Source: a virus
UHGV virus genome: UHGV-1676273
Reading direction: 5' to 3' (one strand)
DNA: 12,770 nucleotides
The translations under genes were made by a program, and so were the position numbers. Under the pieces are notes generated by a model, which did not search any database, had not been told where the DNA came from, and was given only the letters and a program-made list of their open reading frames with translations. This document shows positions 1-9,241 of the stretch, piece after piece (position 1 is the first letter of the stretch; each line of letters begins with the position of its first letter).

Positions 1-245
1 GGATCAAGTTTGAGCAGGATACGGGGCAACTGATCCCGGCAGATGAAGTTGCCAGGGAGTTTTCAGTAATGGCAAAAGCTGTAGTGATGGTGCTGGAAAC
101 CCTCCCTGATGTACTCGAGCGCGATTGTGCGCTTCCACCTGCAGCGGTTTCCCGTGTTCAAAGTGTGATTGACGATTTGCGCGACCAGATGGCCCAGAAG
201 GTCATGGAAGCCGAAGCAGAGGAGGACGAGCCAGAGGAGGACTGA
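1..245 (+). CDS. 3' end of an upstream gene, probably the terminase small subunit (Nu1-like); partial, start lies outside the window
   Basis: Open frame from codon 3-5 to TGA at 243-245, ending in an acidic tail (...EAEAEEDEPEED*). The stop overlaps the large-terminase ATG (ATGA at 243-247), the arrangement seen for lambda Nu1/A. Product identity is inferred from position only. Confidence 0.45.
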   Translation, partial: IKFEQDTGQLIPADEVAREFSVMAKAVVMVLETLPDVLERDCALPPAAVSRVQSVIDDLRDQMAQKVMEAEAEEDEPEED

Positions 246-2347
246 TGGCAAAGCGGGCATCCGCCAGGGGGATCCGTCGGGATGTCTCCGGAATTTTACG
301 CGCGCCACGCCGCATGCTGGTTGCCGACGCGGTGGCCGAGTATATGCGTGTGCCAATGGGCGCCGGTAACTCGGTCCCGTGGGATCCTAATCTGGCCCCT
401 TATGTTATCGAGCCAATGAATTGCCTGGCGTCACGCGAGTATGATGCTGTGGTGTTTGTCGGCCCGGCACGAACGGGTAAGACTATTGGCCTGATTGATG
501 GCTGGATTGTATACAGCATCGTTTGTGACCCGGCTGATATGCTGGTAATCCAGGTCTCCGAAGAGAAAGCGCGCGAACATTCAAAAAAGCGTCTTGATCG
601 CACATTCCGTTGCAGCCCGCAGGTTAAATCAAGACTGAGCCCTCGCCGTAACGATAACAACGTTCACGATCGCACATTCCGTGCAGGTAACTATCTGAAG
701 CTAGGCTGGCCTTCAGTCAATATTATGTCCTCGTCGGACTATAAATTTGTTGCTCTCACCGACTACGACCGCTTCCCGGAGGACATCGACGGGGAGGGGG
801 ACGGATTCTCGCTTGCCTCCAAACGTACCACCACATTTATGTCCGCCGGGATGACTCTGGTGGAGAGCTCGCCGGGACGTGACATCTGCGACAGCAAATG
901 GCGACGTAAGTCGCCTCATGAAGCGCCACCGACGACTGGTATTCTTTCCCTTTACAATCGTGGTGACCGCCGCCGCTGGTACTGGCCATGTCCGCACTGC
1001 GGTGAATATTTTCAGCCAGCCATGGATGCCATGACCGGCTACCGTAATGAACCGGATCCCTTTAAAGCCAGTGAGGCGGCGTATCTACTTTGCCCGCACT
1101 GCAGCGGCATTATCACTGCGGAGAAAAAGCGTGAGCTCAATAGTGCAGGAGTCTGGTTGCGTGAAGGTCAGGTCATTGATCGTAACGGCAACGTTTCCGG
1201 TGAACCGCGCCGCTCCCGTATCGCCAGTTTCTGGATGGAAGGGCCAGCTGCTGCGTATCAGACCTGGGCGCAACTGGTTTACAAATTACTGACTGCAGAA
1301 CAGGAGTATGAAGCGACAGGAAGCGAAGAAACACTCAGGGCGGTTATCAACACCGACTGGGGATTGCCTTATCTTCCTCGTGCCAGCATGGAGCAACGAA
1401 AAAGTGAACTGCTTGAGCAGCGGGCAGAGCCAGTTCCTTCCCGCAGTGTGCCGGATGGCGTTAATTTCCTTGTGGCGACAGTGGATGTGCAGGCGGGACG
1501 TCATCGCCGTTTTGTGGTTCAGGTAACGGGCTATGGCAGCCGTGGCGAACGCTGGATTATTGATCGTTACAACATCACGCAGTCATTGCGCGGTGACAGC
1601 GACGGGGAGAGCCAGCGAATTGATCCGGCCAGCTATCCGGAAGACTGGGATGTCCTGCTGACGGATGTTTTTCATAAAAGCTGGCCGCTGGCCTCCGATC
1701 CTTCTCAACAAATGCGACTGATGGCAATGGCGGTGGACTCCGGCGGTGAAGACGGGGTCACTGATAATGCCTATAAATTCTGGCGTCGTTGCCGTCGTGA
1801 TGGCCTTGGTAAACGTATTTACCTGTTTAAGGGCGACAGCATCCGGCGCGCAAAACTGATCAGCCGTACATTCCCTGATAACACCGGACGAACGGGCCGA
1901 CGGGCGCAGGCCGCAGGTGATGTGCCGCTCTGGCTTCTTCAGACGGATGCCCTGAAAGACCGGGTGAATAACGCGTTATGGCGTGACTCGCCAGGTCCCG
2001 GCTATGTGCATTTCCCTGACTGGCTGGGGAGCTGGTTTTACGACGAACTGACGTATGAAGAGCGGAGCAGTGACGGGAAATGGAGTAAGCCGGGTCGCGG
2101 TGCCAACGAAGCTTTTGACCTGATGGTGTATGCCGAGGCTCTGGTCATTCTGCATGGATACGAAAAGATCCGCTGGCCGGATGCACCGGAGTGGGCGAGC
2201 CGGGAAACCTGGCTGGAGTGTGTCCCGGACAGTACCGAACCGTCACCCTCACCGGAACCGGTATCCACGCCTGTTAAAAAACAAAAACGGAAGAAAACAG
2301 TAACTGACGATGTTAACCCCTGGCTGACTTCCGGAGGATGGTTATGA
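245..2347 (+). CDS. Terminase large subunit, lambda gpA family (700 aa)
   Basis: Walker A-like VGPARTGKT near the N-terminus; paired Cys motifs CPHCGEYF and CPHCSGI arranged as in lambda gpA; VATVDVQ nuclease-region motif. GAGGAGGA lies 5-13 nt upstream of the ATG at 245. First gene of the head module. Confidence 0.9.
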   Translation: MAKRASARGIRRDVSGILRAPRRMLVADAVAEYMRVPMGAGNSVPWDPNLAPYVIEPMNCLASREYDAVVFVGPARTGKTIGLIDGWIVYSIVCDPADMLVIQVSEEKAREHSKKRLDRTFRCSPQVKSRLSPRRNDNNVHDRTFRAGNYLKLGWPSVNIMSSSDYKFVALTDYDRFPEDIDGEGDGFSLASKRTTTFMSAGMTLVESSPGRDICDSKWRRKSPHEAPPTTGILSLYNRGDRRRWYWPCPHCGEYFQPAMDAMTGYRNEPDPFKASEAAYLLCPHCSGIITAEKKRELNSAGVWLREGQVIDRNGNVSGEPRRSRIASFWMEGPAAAYQTWAQLVYKLLTAEQEYEATGSEETLRAVINTDWGLPYLPRASMEQRKSELLEQRAEPVPSRSVPDGVNFLVATVDVQAGRHRRFVVQVTGYGSRGERWIIDRYNITQSLRGDSDGESQRIDPASYPEDWDVLLTDVFHKSWPLASDPSQQMRLMAMAVDSGGEDGVTDNAYKFWRRCRRDGLGKRIYLFKGDSIRRAKLISRTFPDNTGRTGRRAQAAGDVPLWLLQTDALKDRVNNALWRDSPGPGYVHFPDWLGSWFYDELTYEERSSDGKWSKPGRGANEAFDLMVYAEALVILHGYEKIRWPDAPEWASRETWLECVPDSTEPSPSPEPVSTPVKKQKRKKTVTDDVNPWLTSGGWL

Positions 2348-2556
2348 ATCAGAATGATATTGAAGCCATGATTCAGCGTTATACGGAAGCTGAAATGGCG
2401 GTGCTGGACGGAAAATCCGTCACCTTTAATGGTCAGCAGATGACCATGGAAAACTTATCTGAGATCCGGCAGGGACGGCAGGAGTGGGAGCGCCGCCTTG
2501 CGGCTCTGATTACACGACGACGGGGGCATCCCGGGTACCGGCTGGCGAGGTTCTGA
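2344..2556 (+). CDS. Head completion / head-tail joining protein, gpW-like (70 aa)
   Basis: About 70 aa with C-terminal ...ITRRRGHPGYRLARF, resembling the lambda gpW C-terminus (...RRRGPAGFYV). Sits between terminase and portal as in lambda. Start chosen at ATG 2344 (GGAGG at 2333-2337, 6-nt spacer) rather than ATG 2338; it overlaps the terminase stop (ATGA). Confidence 0.75.
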   Translation: MNQNDIEAMIQRYTEAEMAVLDGKSVTFNGQQMTMENLSEIRQGRQEWERRLAALITRRRGHPGYRLARF

Positions 2557-4064
2557 TGGCAATTCTTGATGATGTGATTGGCGTTTTTTCACCAGGATGG
2601 AAAGCGGCAAGGCTGCGTTCCCGTGCGGTGATCCAGGCTTATGAGGCCGTAAAAACGACGCGGACACACAAAGCCCGGCGGGAAAACCGAACTGCCGACC
2701 AGTTAAGCCAGTACGGGGCCGTGTCGTTACGTGAGCAGGCCCGTTACCTTGATAACAACCACGATCTGGTTATTGGTGTATTTGACAAGCTGGAAGAACG
2801 GGTGGTGGGGAAAAACGGGATTATTGTCGAGCCACATCCGGTATTACGCAATGGGGCCATTGCCCGTGATCTGGCAGCGGAGATACGCACCCGATGGAGT
2901 GAATGGTCTGTCAGTCCGGAAGTCACCGGGCAGTTTACCCGTCCGATGCTGGAACGTCTGATGCTGCGTACCTGGCTGCGCGATGGTGAGGTGTTTGCCC
3001 AGATGGTTTCCGGGCGCATAAACAGCCTGACGCCTTCTGCCGGTGTTCATTTCTGGCTGGAGGCGCTCGAGCCGGACTTTATTCCCATGACCAGTGATGA
3101 GAGCAACAGGCTGAATCAGGGCGTGTTTGTTGATGACTGGGGGCGTCCCGAAAAATATCTGGTGTATAAAAGCCGTCCCGTATCCGGGCGGCAGATGGAA
3201 ACCAAAGAAGTGGATGCAGAGCGAATGCTGCATCTTAAATTTGTTCGCCGTCTGCACCAGATGCGCGGGACGTCTTTGTTGTCCGGTGTGCTGATCCGCC
3301 TCAGTGCCCTGAAAGAGTATGAAGATTCTGAGCTGACTGCAGCAAGGATCGCCGCTGCTCTGGGGATGTACATCCGGAAAGGCGACGGGCAGAGCTATGA
3401 ACCGGATGGTAATGGCAGCAAGGAGAATGAACGCGAGCTTACCATTCAGCCAGGCATTATTTACGACGATCTGAAACCCGGCGAAGAAATCGGAATGGTG
3501 AAGTCGGATCGTCCCAATCCTAACCTTGAAACTTTTCGTAATGGTCAGTTGCGTGCCGTGGCGGCGGGCAGTCGTCTGAGTTTTTCCAGTACAGCGCGCA
3601 ACTATAACGGCACTTACAGCGCCCAGCGTCAGGAGCTGGTTGAATCCACTGATGGCTACCTGATCCTGCAGGACTGGTTTATTGGTGCCGTCACCCGCCC
3701 GATGTATCGTGCCTGGCTGAAACAGGCTGTGGCATCCGGTGTTATCAGGCTACCCCGCGATCTTGACCGTTCTTCACTGTATACCGCGGTGTATTCCGGA
3801 CCGGTGATGCCGTGGATTGACCCTGTTAAGGAGGCTGAGGCCTGGAAAATCCAGATTCGTGGTGGAGCGGCGACAGAATCAGACTGGGTACGTGCAGGTG
3901 GTCGTAATCCGGATGATGTCAAACGTCGGCGCAAGGCCGAAATTGATGAAAACCGCAAGCTGGATCTGGTATTTGATACCGATCCGGCCAGTGATAAAGG
4001 AGGCAGCAGTGCCGCAACGAAACGACAGGAGCCGCAGCACACCGACGACCAGTCCGAAGAATAA
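2556..4064 (+). CDS. Portal protein (502 aa)
   Basis: About 500 aa ORF directly after the gpW-like gene, with start overlapping its stop (TGATG at 2554-2558) and GAGG 5 nt upstream. Size and position match lambda gpB; acidic C-terminus. The track start at 2484 is an upstream extension overlapping gpW and is rejected. Confidence 0.8.
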   Translation: MAILDDVIGVFSPGWKAARLRSRAVIQAYEAVKTTRTHKARRENRTADQLSQYGAVSLREQARYLDNNHDLVIGVFDKLEERVVGKNGIIVEPHPVLRNGAIARDLAAEIRTRWSEWSVSPEVTGQFTRPMLERLMLRTWLRDGEVFAQMVSGRINSLTPSAGVHFWLEALEPDFIPMTSDESNRLNQGVFVDDWGRPEKYLVYKSRPVSGRQMETKEVDAERMLHLKFVRRLHQMRGTSLLSGVLIRLSALKEYEDSELTAARIAAALGMYIRKGDGQSYEPDGNGSKENERELTIQPGIIYDDLKPGEEIGMVKSDRPNPNLETFRNGQLRAVAAGSRLSFSSTARNYNGTYSAQRQELVESTDGYLILQDWFIGAVTRPMYRAWLKQAVASGVIRLPRDLDRSSLYTAVYSGPVMPWIDPVKEAEAWKIQIRGGAATESDWVRAGGRNPDDVKRRRKAEIDENRKLDLVFDTDPASDKGGSSAATKRQEPQHTDDQSEE

Positions 4065-4077
4065 TTCCTGGTTCAGG

Positions 4078-6036
4078 ATGCAGGCTGGTCACCAGAGTGA
4101 CGCGGATATTTATATTTATGACGAGATTGGTTTCTGGGGTGTTACAGCGAAGCAGTTTATCAGTGATCTGAATGCACTGGGCGATATCACCCACATTAAT
4201 CTCCATATTAATTCACCGGGTGGCGATGTCTTTGAAGGCATCGCCATTTTTAATGCGCTGAAAACACATGGTGCGTCCATTACCGTTTATGTCGACGGTG
4301 TGGCGGCGTCAATGGCGTCGGTCATTGCGATGGTGGGAAACCCGGTCATTATGCCGGAAAACACCTTCATGATGATTCATAAACCATTTGGCTTTACGGG
4401 CGGTGATGCGGAGGACATGCGCACCTATGCCGACCTGCTCGATAAGGTTGAGGCGGTTCTGTTACCCGCTTATGCACAGAAAACCGGGAAAACCACCGAT
4501 GAAATTGCTGCCATGCTGGCGGATGAGACCTGGATGTCCGGTGCCGAATGTCTGGCACATGGATTTGCTGATCAGGTAACGCCAGCCGTTAAGGCAATGG
4601 CATGTATTCAGTCAAAACGTACAGAGGAATTTAAAAAGATGCCGGAATCCATTCGAAACATGATTACTCCGCCACGCAACAGTGCTCCACGCGTACAGGA
4701 TGATGAACCTGCAGCCTCCCGGACGCCAGTGCAGGCAGCAGCACCCGTGGTGGATGAAAACAGTATCCGTGCGCAGGTACTGGCAGAGCAAAAAGCGCGT
4801 GTAAACGGTATTAATGATCTGTTTGCCATGTTTGGCGGGCGTTATCAGACGCTGCAGGCTCAGTGTCTTGCCGATCCTGAATGTTCGCTGGAGCAGGCCC
4901 GCGAAAAGCTGTTGAACGAGATGGGGCGCGAGTCCACGCCATCCAATAAAAATACCCCGGCTCATATTTATGCCGGTAACGGTAATTTTGTGGGGGACGG
5001 GATCCGCCAGGCGCTGATGGCGCGTGCCGGATTTGAAAAAACCGAACGTGATAATGTCTACAACGGGATGACCCTGCGTGAATATGCCCGTATGTCACTG
5101 ACTGAACGGGGTATTGGGGTTTCCGGTTATAACCCGATGCAGATGGTCGGTGCGGCGTTCACACACAGTACGTCTGACTTCGGTAATATTCTGCTGGATG
5201 TTGCGAACAAAGCCATTCTGCAGGGCTGGGAAGATGCCCCTGAAACCTATGAACAGTGGACGCGGAAAGGTCAGTTGTCTGATTTTAAAATTGCCCATCG
5301 TGTGGGTATGGGGGGCTTCAGTGCTCTGCGTCAGGTGCGTGAAGGGGCGGAATATAAATACGTCACCACCGGAGATAAACAGGCCACTATTGCACTGGCG
5401 ACCTATGGCGAGCTGTTCAGTATCACCCGTCAGGCCATTATCAATGATGATCTGAATATGCTGACCGATGTCCCGATGAAGCTGGGCCGTGCGGCGAAAT
5501 CCACTATTGCCGATCTGGTTTATGCCATTCTGACGTCTAACCCGAAAATCTCCACAGATAATGTAAGTCTGTTCGATAAAGCGAAACATGCAAACGTACT
5601 GGAGAGCGCTGCAATGGACGTGGCATCGCTGGATAAAGCCCGCCAGTTGATGCGCGTTCAGAAAGAGGGGGAGCGTCATCTGAATATTCGTCCTGCGTTC
5701 GTACTGGTACCGACGGCGATGGAGTCTGTTGCTAACCAGGTCATTCGCTCCTCAAGTGTCAAGGGGGCTGACATTAACGCCGGTATTATTAACCCGGTGA
5801 AAGATTTTGCGACCGTTATTGCAGAGCCTCGTCTTGATGATAACAGCCAGACCACCTTCTACCTGGCTGCGTCAAAAGGCTCCGATACGATTGAAGTGGC
5901 TTATCTCAACGGTGTGGATACGCCATATATTGATCAGATGGAGGGCTTCAGTGTGGATGGCGTGACAACGAAAGTGCGTATTGACGCCGGTGTCGCGCCA
6001 GTTGATCACCGCGGTCTGGTGAAATGTACGGCGTAA
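4078..6036 (+). CDS. Fusion protein: N-terminal ClpP-like (S14) prohead protease domain, linker/scaffold-like segment, C-terminal major capsid domain (652 aa from ATG 4078)
   Basis: N-terminal ~180 aa carry ClpP-type catalytic motifs GVAASMASVIA (Ser) and FMMIHKPFG (His). A Pro/Ala/Gln-rich low-complexity linker follows. The C-terminal ~330 aa (YAGNGNF...PVDHRGLVKCTA) is major-capsid-like by size and position. Start chosen at the first ATG after the portal stop; the SD is weak, and the track start at 3817 would overlap the portal by 250 nt. Confidence 0.85.
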   Translation: MQAGHQSDADIYIYDEIGFWGVTAKQFISDLNALGDITHINLHINSPGGDVFEGIAIFNALKTHGASITVYVDGVAASMASVIAMVGNPVIMPENTFMMIHKPFGFTGGDAEDMRTYADLLDKVEAVLLPAYAQKTGKTTDEIAAMLADETWMSGAECLAHGFADQVTPAVKAMACIQSKRTEEFKKMPESIRNMITPPRNSAPRVQDDEPAASRTPVQAAAPVVDENSIRAQVLAEQKARVNGINDLFAMFGGRYQTLQAQCLADPECSLEQAREKLLNEMGRESTPSNKNTPAHIYAGNGNFVGDGIRQALMARAGFEKTERDNVYNGMTLREYARMSLTERGIGVSGYNPMQMVGAAFTHSTSDFGNILLDVANKAILQGWEDAPETYEQWTRKGQLSDFKIAHRVGMGGFSALRQVREGAEYKYVTTGDKQATIALATYGELFSITRQAIINDDLNMLTDVPMKLGRAAKSTIADLVYAILTSNPKISTDNVSLFDKAKHANVLESAAMDVASLDKARQLMRVQKEGERHLNIRPAFVLVPTAMESVANQVIRSSSVKGADINAGIINPVKDFATVIAEPRLDDNSQTTFYLAASKGSDTIEVAYLNGVDTPYIDQMEGFSVDGVTTKVRIDAGVAPVDHRGLVKCTA

Positions 6037-6060
6037 ACGTCGCAGACAACAACTCTGATG

Positions 6061-6079
6061 GCCCGTAAGGGCTTTTTTT
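6061..6079. terminator. Putative rho-independent terminator/attenuator downstream of the capsid gene
   Basis: GCCC-GTAA-GGGC hairpin (4-bp stem, GNRA-type loop) at 6061-6072 followed by TTTTTTT at 6073-6079, starting 25 nt after the capsid stop codon. Confidence 0.5.
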
Positions 6080-6122
6080 GTACCTGAAATCAGCCCCTGA
6101 ACGGGGCTGTGCGGAGACAGTT

Positions 6123-6446
6123 ATGGCAAAGAATTTTGTAGAAGAAGGAAAAACGGTGGCGATTGTTGCCAGTGCAGCCATCAGCAGCGGAGATCTGGTG
6201 CAGGTGGGTGATGTTTTTGCGGTAGCGCTGACCGATATTCCACAGGGTGAAACAGGCGACGGCCTGACCGAAGGTGTGTTTATGCTGCCTAAGCTGAAAA
6301 CGGATGACATGAAAACGGGTAAGAAGGTTTATCTGAAGTCCGGAAAAGTTCAGTTGACTAACAGCGGCTCTGATCCGCTGGTCGGGGTTGTCTGGGCAGA
6401 TGCCGGAACCAGTGCAGAAGAAGTGCCGGTAAAACTCAATGTCTGA
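6123..6446 (+). CDS. Small head-associated protein of unknown function (107 aa), possibly a head decoration protein
   Basis: GGAG at 6113-6116 with 6-nt spacer to ATG 6123. Gly/Val-rich, likely beta-rich protein (MAKNFVEEGKTVAIV...GVFMLPKLK...). Occupies the slot between the capsid gene and the FII-like gene. The DUF2190-like assignment is from memory and unverified. Confidence 0.6.
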   Translation: MAKNFVEEGKTVAIVASAAISSGDLVQVGDVFAVALTDIPQGETGDGLTEGVFMLPKLKTDDMKTGKKVYLKSGKVQLTNSGSDPLVGVVWADAGTSAEEVPVKLNV

Positions 6447-6714
6447 TCCCTTTTCCCGGCTGGCAGCGCGTATGGATGCGATCACGGTCAGAAAGATGGG
6501 AAAGACAGCCTCGATTAATGATGTCGATATGACTGTGATCCCGGGAGAAACACTGGCAGAGCTGAATGCTCTGTCCGGACCTGCGGTCTCTCTGGTGGTG
6601 TTTTCTTCGGGATACCGCCCACGGCGCGGGGATCGCGTTGTTTATGACGGACAACAATGGACGGTCACACGGCATGAACGTTTTAACGGTAAGCCAATGA
6701 TCTTTATTGAGTAA
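6439..6714 (+). CDS. Head-tail joining protein, gpFII-like (91 aa)
   Basis: N-terminus MSDPFSRLAARMDAI resembles lambda gpFII (MADFDNLFDAAIARADE); C-terminal RRGDRVVYDGQQWTV matches the RRGDTLTIGEENFWV region of FII. Start overlaps the preceding gene by 8 nt. Located immediately before Z. Confidence 0.75.
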   Translation: MSDPFSRLAARMDAITVRKMGKTASINDVDMTVIPGETLAELNALSGPAVSLVVFSSGYRPRRGDRVVYDGQQWTVTRHERFNGKPMIFIE

Positions 6715-7712: not shown

Positions 7713-8456
7713 ATGACCACACCAAATCCACTGGCAAAAACGAAAGGTGCGGGAACGACGTTCTGGATGTACACCGGCAAGGGCGATGCGTTTGCGAACC
7801 CTTTATCGGACACTGACTGGCTGCGTCTTGCGATGGTGAAGGATCTGCAACCTGGCGAAATGACCGCTGATGCAGAAGATGACACTTATCTCGATGATGA
7901 AGATGCAGACTGGAAAACGACAACCCAGGGGCAGAAATCCGTCGGTGATACTTCGGCGACGCTGGCCTGGCGTCCGGGTGACAGCGGGCAGAAAAAACTG
8001 GTTCAGTTGTTCGACTCCGGTGAAGTCTGCGCGTTTCGTATCAAATATCCCAACGGTACTGTTGATGTTTTCCGTGGCTGGCTGAGTTCACTGGGTAAAA
8101 CCATTGCCTCAAAAGACGTGATGACCCGCACCGTGAAAATCAGCGGTGTGGGGCGTCCGTATCTGGCAGAGGAGGGCACTGAAACCGTGGGCGTTACCGG
8201 GCTGACGGTGGCACCGGCATCCGCCAGTGTCAATGTGGGAGCAACCACCACGCTGACCTTTACAGTAAAACCTGACGGAGCCAGTGACAAAGCGATCAGT
8301 GTGCATTCGACAGATCCACAGACTGCCACGGTGACCCTGAACGGGCTTGTGGCCACGGTGAAAGGCGTGAAGCAGGGCAGTGTCAGCATTGTGGGCATGA
8401 CTTCTGACGGCGATTTTGTGGCAGTGGCTACGGTGGCTGTCAGCGCCGCAGGTTAA
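7713..8456 (+). CDS. V: Major tail protein V with C-terminal Ig-like domain (247 aa)
   Basis: Close match to recalled lambda gpV: KGAGTTFWMY, ANPLSDTDW, YLDDEDADW, NGTVDVFRGW, and a C-terminal Ig-like segment (TVAPASASVNVGATTTLTF...). AAGGAGGTGG SD with 5-nt spacer before ATG 7713. The track start at 7638 is an upstream extension. Confidence 0.92.
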   Translation: MTTPNPLAKTKGAGTTFWMYTGKGDAFANPLSDTDWLRLAMVKDLQPGEMTADAEDDTYLDDEDADWKTTTQGQKSVGDTSATLAWRPGDSGQKKLVQLFDSGEVCAFRIKYPNGTVDVFRGWLSSLGKTIASKDVMTRTVKISGVGRPYLAEEGTETVGVTGLTVAPASASVNVGATTTLTFTVKPDGASDKAISVHSTDPQTATVTLNGLVATVKGVKQGSVSIVGMTSDGDFVAVATVAVSAAG

Positions 8457-8476
8457 CAGGACGATACTCATCATTT

Positions 8477-8500
8477 GCCCCGGTTATCCGGGGCTTTTTT
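8477..8500. terminator. Rho-independent terminator/attenuator between V and G
   Basis: GCCCCGG-TTAT-CCGGGGC hairpin (7-bp GC stem) at 8477-8494 followed by TTTTTT at 8495-8500, 21 nt after the V stop. Confidence 0.7.
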
Positions 8501-8516
8501 GCAGGTGGAGAACATG

Positions 8517-8903
8517 ATGTTTCTGAAACAGGGCACGTTTAATTATGAAAAACAGTCCGTGGTGCTCAGTGAGCTGTCCGGGCTGCAGAGAATTGAATAT
8601 CTGGCGTTTGTTCAGCAGCGAACGGCAAAGTTTGATGCCGGGGAGGGAGAACTGCCGGAGGCTGAACGACAGATTGCTTTTCTGCGGATGGGGATGGATA
8701 TCAATGCCTGGCTGGTTTCCCGCTCACTGTGGAATGCGGATCAGTCTAAGGATGTAGAGACGCTTTGCGCATCCGTTATTACAACATGGTCGTATGATGC
8801 CCTGGGGGCGGGGGCGGAGATGGTTCTGTCGCTGAGCGGTATGGGGGCCATTGAGAATGCCGGGGATTTGGAGCATGAGGTGCTGACGCCGGAAAAGTCC
8901 TGA
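8517..8903 (+). CDS. G: Tail assembly chaperone G (128 aa)
   Basis: N-terminus MFLKQGTF...VVLSELSGLQRIEYLAF resembles lambda gpG (MFLKTESFE...TLSELSALQRIEHLA). GGTGGAG SD with 6-nt spacer to ATG 8517 (ATG 8514 also possible). Sits directly upstream of the tape measure gene. Confidence 0.85.
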   Translation: MFLKQGTFNYEKQSVVLSELSGLQRIEYLAFVQQRTAKFDAGEGELPEAERQIAFLRMGMDINAWLVSRSLWNADQSKDVETLCASVITTWSYDALGAGAEMVLSLSGMGAIENAGDLEHEVLTPEKS

Positions 8904-9241
8904 CGCGGGAAATGCAGTTTGTCATGCGGCTTGCCCGGGAGTTCCGGCGGGCAGACTGGCGGCGGATGCTGTCGGAAATGTCGGCCACTGAGCTTGGTGA
9001 GTGGGGCGATTATTTCCGGATGCAGAGCTTCAGTGATGTGTGGATGGATGCGCAGTTTGCCTCGCTGAAGGCATTGATCGTGAGAATGGTGTCCGGCAGC
9101 AGTGATGCTGCGGTGGCTGATTTCAGCCTTTTACCGGAAGAGAACGGGATACCGGAGCGAACGGACGAAGAACTGATGCATCTTGGAGAAGGTATTTCCG
9201 GAGGTGTGCGTTATGGACCAGATAGCCAACCTGGTCATTGA
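8517..9241 (+). CDS. Tail assembly chaperone G-T fusion made by -1 programmed frameshift near 8891-8897 (about 242 aa predicted)
   Basis: The -1 frame relative to G is open only from 8879 (TGA at 8876-8878) and runs to TGA 9239-9241, overlapping the H start. This matches the conserved G/GT arrangement upstream of tape measure genes. The only slippery candidate in the 8879-8900 overlap is G_GAA_AAG at 8891-8897, one nucleotide different from lambda G_GGA_AAG. Confidence 0.7.
8891..8897 (+). other. Candidate -1 ribosomal frameshift heptamer GGAAAAG (G_GAA_AAG in the G frame)
   Basis: It lies four codons before the G stop and is the only site inside the 22-nt window where the G frame and the T frame are both open. 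A-site AAG to AAA re-pairing of tRNA-Lys is a known shift-prone event in E. coli. Confidence 0.55.

Follow-up and report, generated by a model that had tools for sequence, protein, structure and literature searches.

The closest solved homologue of the protein described here is gp48 of the Clostridioides difficile myophage phiCD508 (PDB 9gay and 9gb0), a member of the PF09956/DUF2190 family (InterPro IPR011231, 'VT1-Sakai H0018') that mass spectrometry detected in virions and that has been modelled in a 3.4 Å map (PMC11948020). On the T = 7 capsid of this phage, 420 copies of gp48 are arranged as trimers on the true and quasi three-fold axes; each trimer contacts nine capsid subunits, and the N-terminal arm fits into a hole that two adjacent capsid proteins leave between the axial domain and the extended loop (PMC11948020). 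In phage Pam3, gp6 forms 140 β-tulip trimers, and its N-loop supplies most of the capsid contacts (PMC9942802). Here we describe a 107-residue protein encoded just downstream of the capsid gene in an mEp460/Gifsy-type lambdoid prophage of Escherichia coli. Its family, its predicted fold and the conserved linkage of its gene with the capsid gene indicate that it is very probably a cement protein, that is, a trimeric β-tulip clamp that binds and reinforces the expanded capsid at the three-fold and quasi-three-fold junctions and is the counterpart of lambda gpD.

The stretch analysed (hereafter referred to as the window) comprises 12,770 nucleotides (nt) of the virus genome UHGV-1676273 and carries a lambda-like late operon on its plus strand (Table 1). 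The head module includes a gene in which a ClpP-like prohead protease is fused to the major capsid protein. The open reading frame (ORF) of this fusion is over-extended when it is taken from TTG 3817; the alignment to the NCBIfam fusion model begins at residue 96. With either start, 3817 or 3913, the fusion gene shares about 150 nt or more with the 3′ terminus of the portal gene, in another frame.

Table 1. Features of the late operon around the 107-codon gene (window coordinates).
Feature	Position	Strand	Basis or remark
Terminase large subunit	245..2347	+	
W-like gene	2338..2556	+	
Lambda-type portal	stop at 4064	+	
ClpP-like prohead protease/major capsid protein fusion	3913..6036	+	NF045540 (985 bits), PF00574, PF25209; start per Tritos annotation
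Terminator-like hairpin, GGCCCGTAAGGGCT + T7	6060..6079	+	scan and folding; between capsid stop and putative cement gene
Second hairpin, 7-bp stem CAGCCCC-TGAAC-GGGGCTG	6091..6109	+	directly 5′ of the Shine–Dalgarno motif; sequence and RNAfold
Shine–Dalgarno motif GGAG	6113-6116	+	6 nt 5′ of ATG 6123; read from sequence
Predicted cement/decoration protein	6123..6446	+	107 aa; PF09956 Phage_cement_2 (formerly DUF2190), PHROG 122
Flexible N-terminal arm, codons 1-10	6123..6152	+	conserved M-A-K-N...G9; AlphaFold2 pLDDT
Overlap of the predicted cement gene with the FII/Hc1-like gene	6439..6446	+	8 nt, ATGTCTGA; sequence
Gifsy-2/FII-like (Hc1-like) gene	6439..6714	+	PF13856, PHROG 153
Z, U, V-like tube protein, G/T, tape measure and M-like gene, in this order	after 6714	+	

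The ORF extends over 324 nt, comprising 107 codons and a TGA stop at 6444–6446. The original prediction, made from the sequence alone, had described it as preceded by a good Shine–Dalgarno motif and overlapping the start of the FII-like gene, and both features are present, the downstream ATG overlapping the stop codon within AATGTCTGA. The overlap suggests that translation of the two genes is coupled. The 11.05-kDa product is acidic (pI 4.65) and is Gly/Val-rich, as had been noted (V 16, G 12, K 10 and A 10 of 107 residues; G and V together 26%). It matches the Pfam family PF09956 along the entire profile (residues 6–105 against positions 1–103 of 103; 73.3 bits with a gathering cut-off of 24, E = 2.3 × 10−20) and the PHROG 122 'head decoration' profile from end to end (residues 1–107 against 1–109 of 109; E = 4.9 × 10−47). 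The gene differs from that of phage Tritos at three nucleotides, all three synonymous, and the 5′ intergenic region is identical in the two. The two E values and the exclusively synonymous differences place this ORF far beyond chance, confirming that it is real. An alternative TTG start at 6078, which would yield 122 residues and is given by the ORF listing and by the Tritos record, was rejected: it lies inside the T-run of the terminator-like hairpin, has no Shine–Dalgarno motif and would precede a conserved family N terminus, M-A-K-N. Since family alignments begin at M1-A2-(K3)-N4 of the protein and TTG 6078 falls within the T-run, ATG 6123 is the likely start.

The protein belongs to a large family, with 4,299 clusters (at 50% identity) matching its profile at E ≤ 0.001. 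It is 100% identical to proteins of the coliphages mEp460, Tritos and phi458, and 98–99% identical to those of cdtI, Ayreon and HannyBb; clear orthologues, likewise encoded after the protease/capsid gene, are found in Fels-1 (63%), Gifsy-2 (60%) and VT1-Sakai (H0018; 49.5%). All close homologues carry a precomputed PF09956 assignment, which agrees with the DUF2190-like assignment that had been raised as a possibility, and the protein has the setting associated with this family, being small, single-domain and encoded next to the major capsid gene of a phage head module. NCBIfam has no model for it. The gene occurs in 1,826 of 5,426 complete E. coli genomes, mostly at 95% nucleotide identity or above; PGAP labels the product 'DUF2190 family protein' in E. 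coli genomes, and RefSeq phage records call it 'head decoration'. It is therefore an ordinary gene that has already been annotated: the identical protein has been deposited as a head decoration protein, the Pfam family is named for phage cement proteins, and one member has been solved on its capsid. Searches of the accessible literature for DUF2190, PF09956, mEp460, Gifsy virion proteomics, and protease–capsid fusion with decoration uncovered no experiments on this protein, on relatives more than 50% identical to it or on the enterobacterial branch of the family, and no experimental characterisation of the VT1-Sakai H0018, Gifsy-2 or Fels-1 homologues. The main value of the present analysis thus lies in annotation, as roughly one in three complete E. 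coli genomes carries the gene and many records describe it as DUF2190, hypothetical, membrane or 'recombinase RecA', whereas the evidence supports the name capsid cement/decoration protein.

To examine the fold, an AlphaFold2 model was built from a 43-sequence alignment (pLDDT 91.7, pTM 0.81); one sequence (P0079), which is chimeric or truncated, was left out of the alignments. The model consists of nine β-strands and no helix, in keeping with the expectation of a β-rich protein. Residues 1–10 are its only uncertain part (mean pLDDT 57, compared with 92–97 elsewhere), and N4 and G9 within this segment are at least 90% conserved among 108 diverse family members. A Foldseek comparison with the PDB, the kind of check that the original prediction had proposed, returned phiCD508 gp48 as the top match (TM 0.74), followed by the phi29 gp8.5 base and the HFTV1, Sf11, TW1, Pam3, T1, FCWL1, XM1 and BB1 decoration proteins; lambda gpD and phage 21 SHP were matched partially, over 55–60 residues. 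This list corresponds to the membership of the β-tulip decoration fold as reviewed previously (PMC7602432), and the protein resembles in fold the β-tulip capsid decoration superfamily (gpD, TW1 gp56, phi29 gp8.5, P74-26 gp87 and Pam3 gp6). At the sequence level, neither the protein on its own nor a narrow enterobacterial profile retrieved anything meaningful from the PDB (best match LptE, E = 0.09–0.29), and phiCD508 gp48 was reached only with a broad profile of 108 sequences assembled from distant representatives (E = 6.5 × 10−8; phi29 gp8.5, E = 0.014). Because this profile matches phiCD508 gp48, kinship to a solved decoration protein is backed by sequence as well as by fold.

The same model bears on the names 'recombinase RecA', 'predicted RecA/RadA family phage recombinase' and 'membrane protein', which, together with 'hypothetical protein', are attached to some family members, for example in the Stx2a-converting phage records LC567820 and LC567818. 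Taken literally, these names would make the protein a small RecA/RadA-like phage recombinase or a membrane protein, a reading to which we attach almost no credence: RecA/RadA is a legacy name of COG5471/DUF2190, the protein has no Walker A motif ([AG]xxxxGK[ST]), its model is all-β, and no RecA-like structures were among the matches. The recombinase and membrane labels are thus contradicted by the fold and motif tests.

A comparison with the solved relatives revealed both the shared core and several differences. The protein is 23% identical to phiCD508 gp48, a protein of a myophage of a Gram-positive host in which the protease and the capsid protein are separate and the gp48 gene lies upstream of the capsid gene, whereas here the two are fused and the gene lies downstream. 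Pam3 gp6 and E217 gp24, which represent PF22758 (Phage_cement), are larger (166–211 residues), with an additional C-terminal β domain and a 23-residue N-loop, and the match of our protein to PF22758 falls under the gathering score of 27. The remaining β-tulip stabilisers (HFTV1 capsid stabilization protein, TW1 gp56, Sf11 gp40, T1 capsid chains 9kzj_H/I, FCWL1 decoration protein, XM1 minor capsid protein and the phi29 gp8.5 base) are 12–19% identical to it and are mostly 130–160 residues long with extra elements, including a long fibre in phi29 gp8.5. By analogy with phiCD508 gp48 and Pam3 gp6, the N-terminal segment probably serves as the capsid-contacting arm. However, the segment ahead of the aligned core is only about 4 residues long here, compared with about 15–18 in phiCD508 gp48 and 23 in Pam3 gp6; because this arm is short, the details of anchoring may differ from those in the solved relatives.

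Resemblance to lambda gpD is confined to the fold. Only about half of the fold of gpD or phage 21 SHP (PF02924) superposes on the protein; no PF02924 match was obtained at E ≤ 0.01, and alignment of the family profile with lambda gpD gave an hhalign probability of 0.13, with no detectable sequence similarity, which upholds the earlier impression that the protein does not look like gpD. The protein thus falls outside the gpD family and has only the β-tulip core in common with it, although it probably works like gpD. Two kinds of lambdoid head would fill the same role, that of a small trimeric three-fold clamp, with distantly related β-tulip proteins whose genes lie on opposite sides of the capsid gene.

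Gene order provides a further line of evidence. The gene had been assigned to the 'D/FI slot' of lambda; the FI part of this assignment holds, as the gene lies between the capsid (E) and FII genes, whereas the D part does not, as lambda D precedes E. The order here, A-W-B-(C/E fusion)-107-codon gene-FII-Z-U, parallels the lambda order ...E-FI-FII-Z-U with this gene in the FI position, and no FI homologue occurs in the window. From position, the protein could stand in functionally for lambda gpFI, which is non-structural and aids terminase docking on proheads. We regard this as extremely unlikely, given that the reading draws only on position, that the fold is that of capsid-bound decoration proteins, and that the family profile aligned with lambda FI at an hhalign probability of only 0.10 with no Pfam FI match, in line with the earlier remark that gpFI, too, is dissimilar.

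In relatives at 48–54% identity, the order of protease/capsid fusion, PF09956 gene, Gifsy-2-like gene, Z and U is retained, and the gene comes immediately after the protease/capsid fusion gene in the window, in loci L002, L003 and L005, in Citrobacter phage Chris1 and in VT1-Sakai. Chris1 is a myophage with sheath and baseplate genes in which the homologue is still found directly after the fusion gene; since this pairing is kept despite different downstream genes, it is the capsid gene, rather than the neck or tail genes, to which the homologue is linked. The Chris1 arrangement and the ranking of structural matches both disfavour a role in head completion or head–tail joining at the portal vertex, in concert with the downstream FII-like gene; we consider this alternative very unlikely. 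In VT1-Sakai (an Stx1 prophage), H0018 comes after the capsid fragment H0019, and an IS629 element (L007 996–2305) splits the protease/scaffold gene H0022 from H0019, just 5′ of H0018; because of this separation, the VT1-Sakai head module is probably defective.

Taken with the family and fold evidence, the linkage to the capsid gene bears out decoration or cementing as the leading guess of the original prediction, and the capsid domain of the fusion protein, at about residues 440–739 of its ORF, is the presumed binding partner. Among solved capsids, the best matches to the capsid protein of this phage were weak Mu GpT-domain capsid matches (E = 1.5 × 10−4), with no close solved homologue found. 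Based on the solved homologues, the following mechanism can be proposed. The 11-kDa all-β protein would be made late, from the same transcript as the protease/capsid fusion. After prohead expansion, its trimers would bind the outer surface of the capsid at the icosahedral three-fold and quasi-three-fold sites, where three capsomers meet, and the short flexible N-terminal arm would tuck against the E-loop/A-domain region of adjacent capsid subunits. Capsomers would thereby be clamped together non-covalently, and the DNA-filled head would be stabilised, as gpD does in lambda. About 420 copies would be expected per head if the capsid is T = 7, a triangulation number that we guess from genomes of 43–47 kb. 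Presence in virions, the trimeric state, the binding site, the copy number and the stabilising effect are all predicted by homology; within PF09956, trimers on the outside of the capsid are known only for phiCD508 gp48.

A protein of this fold and family could also decorate the capsid surface without mainly cementing it, serving adhesion, display or a dispensable ornament, or could be essential for the completion of packaging in the manner of lambda gpD. Fold and family evidence apply equally to such roles; moreover, whether a protein is classed as decoration or as cement hinges on stability data that are frequently lacking, and some β-tulip proteins are needed for assembly whereas others are not (PMC7602432). 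Nevertheless, the protein is a bare 107-residue core without an Ig-like domain, fibre or collagen extension that could provide a second function, and its characterised β-tulip relatives have been reported as stabilisers (PMC7602432), making these roles quite improbable. We also consider it unlikely, but conceivable, that a minimal protein with a very short arm on a protease–capsid fusion shell anchors in a way unlike the solved β-tulip cements, or that it is essential for the completion of DNA packaging, as gpD is, and partly replaces the missing FI function. For the favoured cement protein, more speculatively, a compact decoration protein from an E. coli phage could be used as a gpD-like display scaffold.

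The 86-nt gap between the capsid stop codon and the cement gene contains two hairpins (Table 1), both identical in Tritos. The corresponding gap in Chris1 has two sites that combine a hairpin with a T-run (L006 3430–3447 and 3459–3480); no hairpins were found after the capsid gene in L002 or L005, and conservation is patchy. The two hairpins might act as a partial terminator or as a stabiliser of the mRNA 3′ end, and so determine how much capsid protein is made relative to the downstream products.

On the other side of the cement gene, the 91-residue product of the gene at 6439–6714 matches PF13856 (E = 1.8 × 10−17) and, weakly, PF05354 (gpFII; E = 0.0018). It is named 'DNA breaking-rejoining protein' by PGAP, 'ATP-binding sugar transporter from pro-phage' in PF13856, and Hc1 head closure protein in Tritos. 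The gene occupies the FII slot and has the PHROG 153 assignment and the weak gpFII match, and the first two of these names look misleading.

Further downstream, a G/T-like pair of tail chaperone genes is present (8475–8903 and 8879–9241). The frame of the T-like gene, which is open from 8879, is shifted by −1 from that of the G-like gene. The sequence of the overlap is CCG GAA AAG TCC TGA, and the slip site is likely to be G GAA AAG, not the canonical G GGA AAG of lambda. The V-like major tail protein (7713–8456; L002 5568–6302) has a C-terminal Big_2 Ig-like domain; the Pfam Big_2 match comes from the L002 and L005 orthologues, and the window sequence has the matching region, VTGLTVAPASASV...
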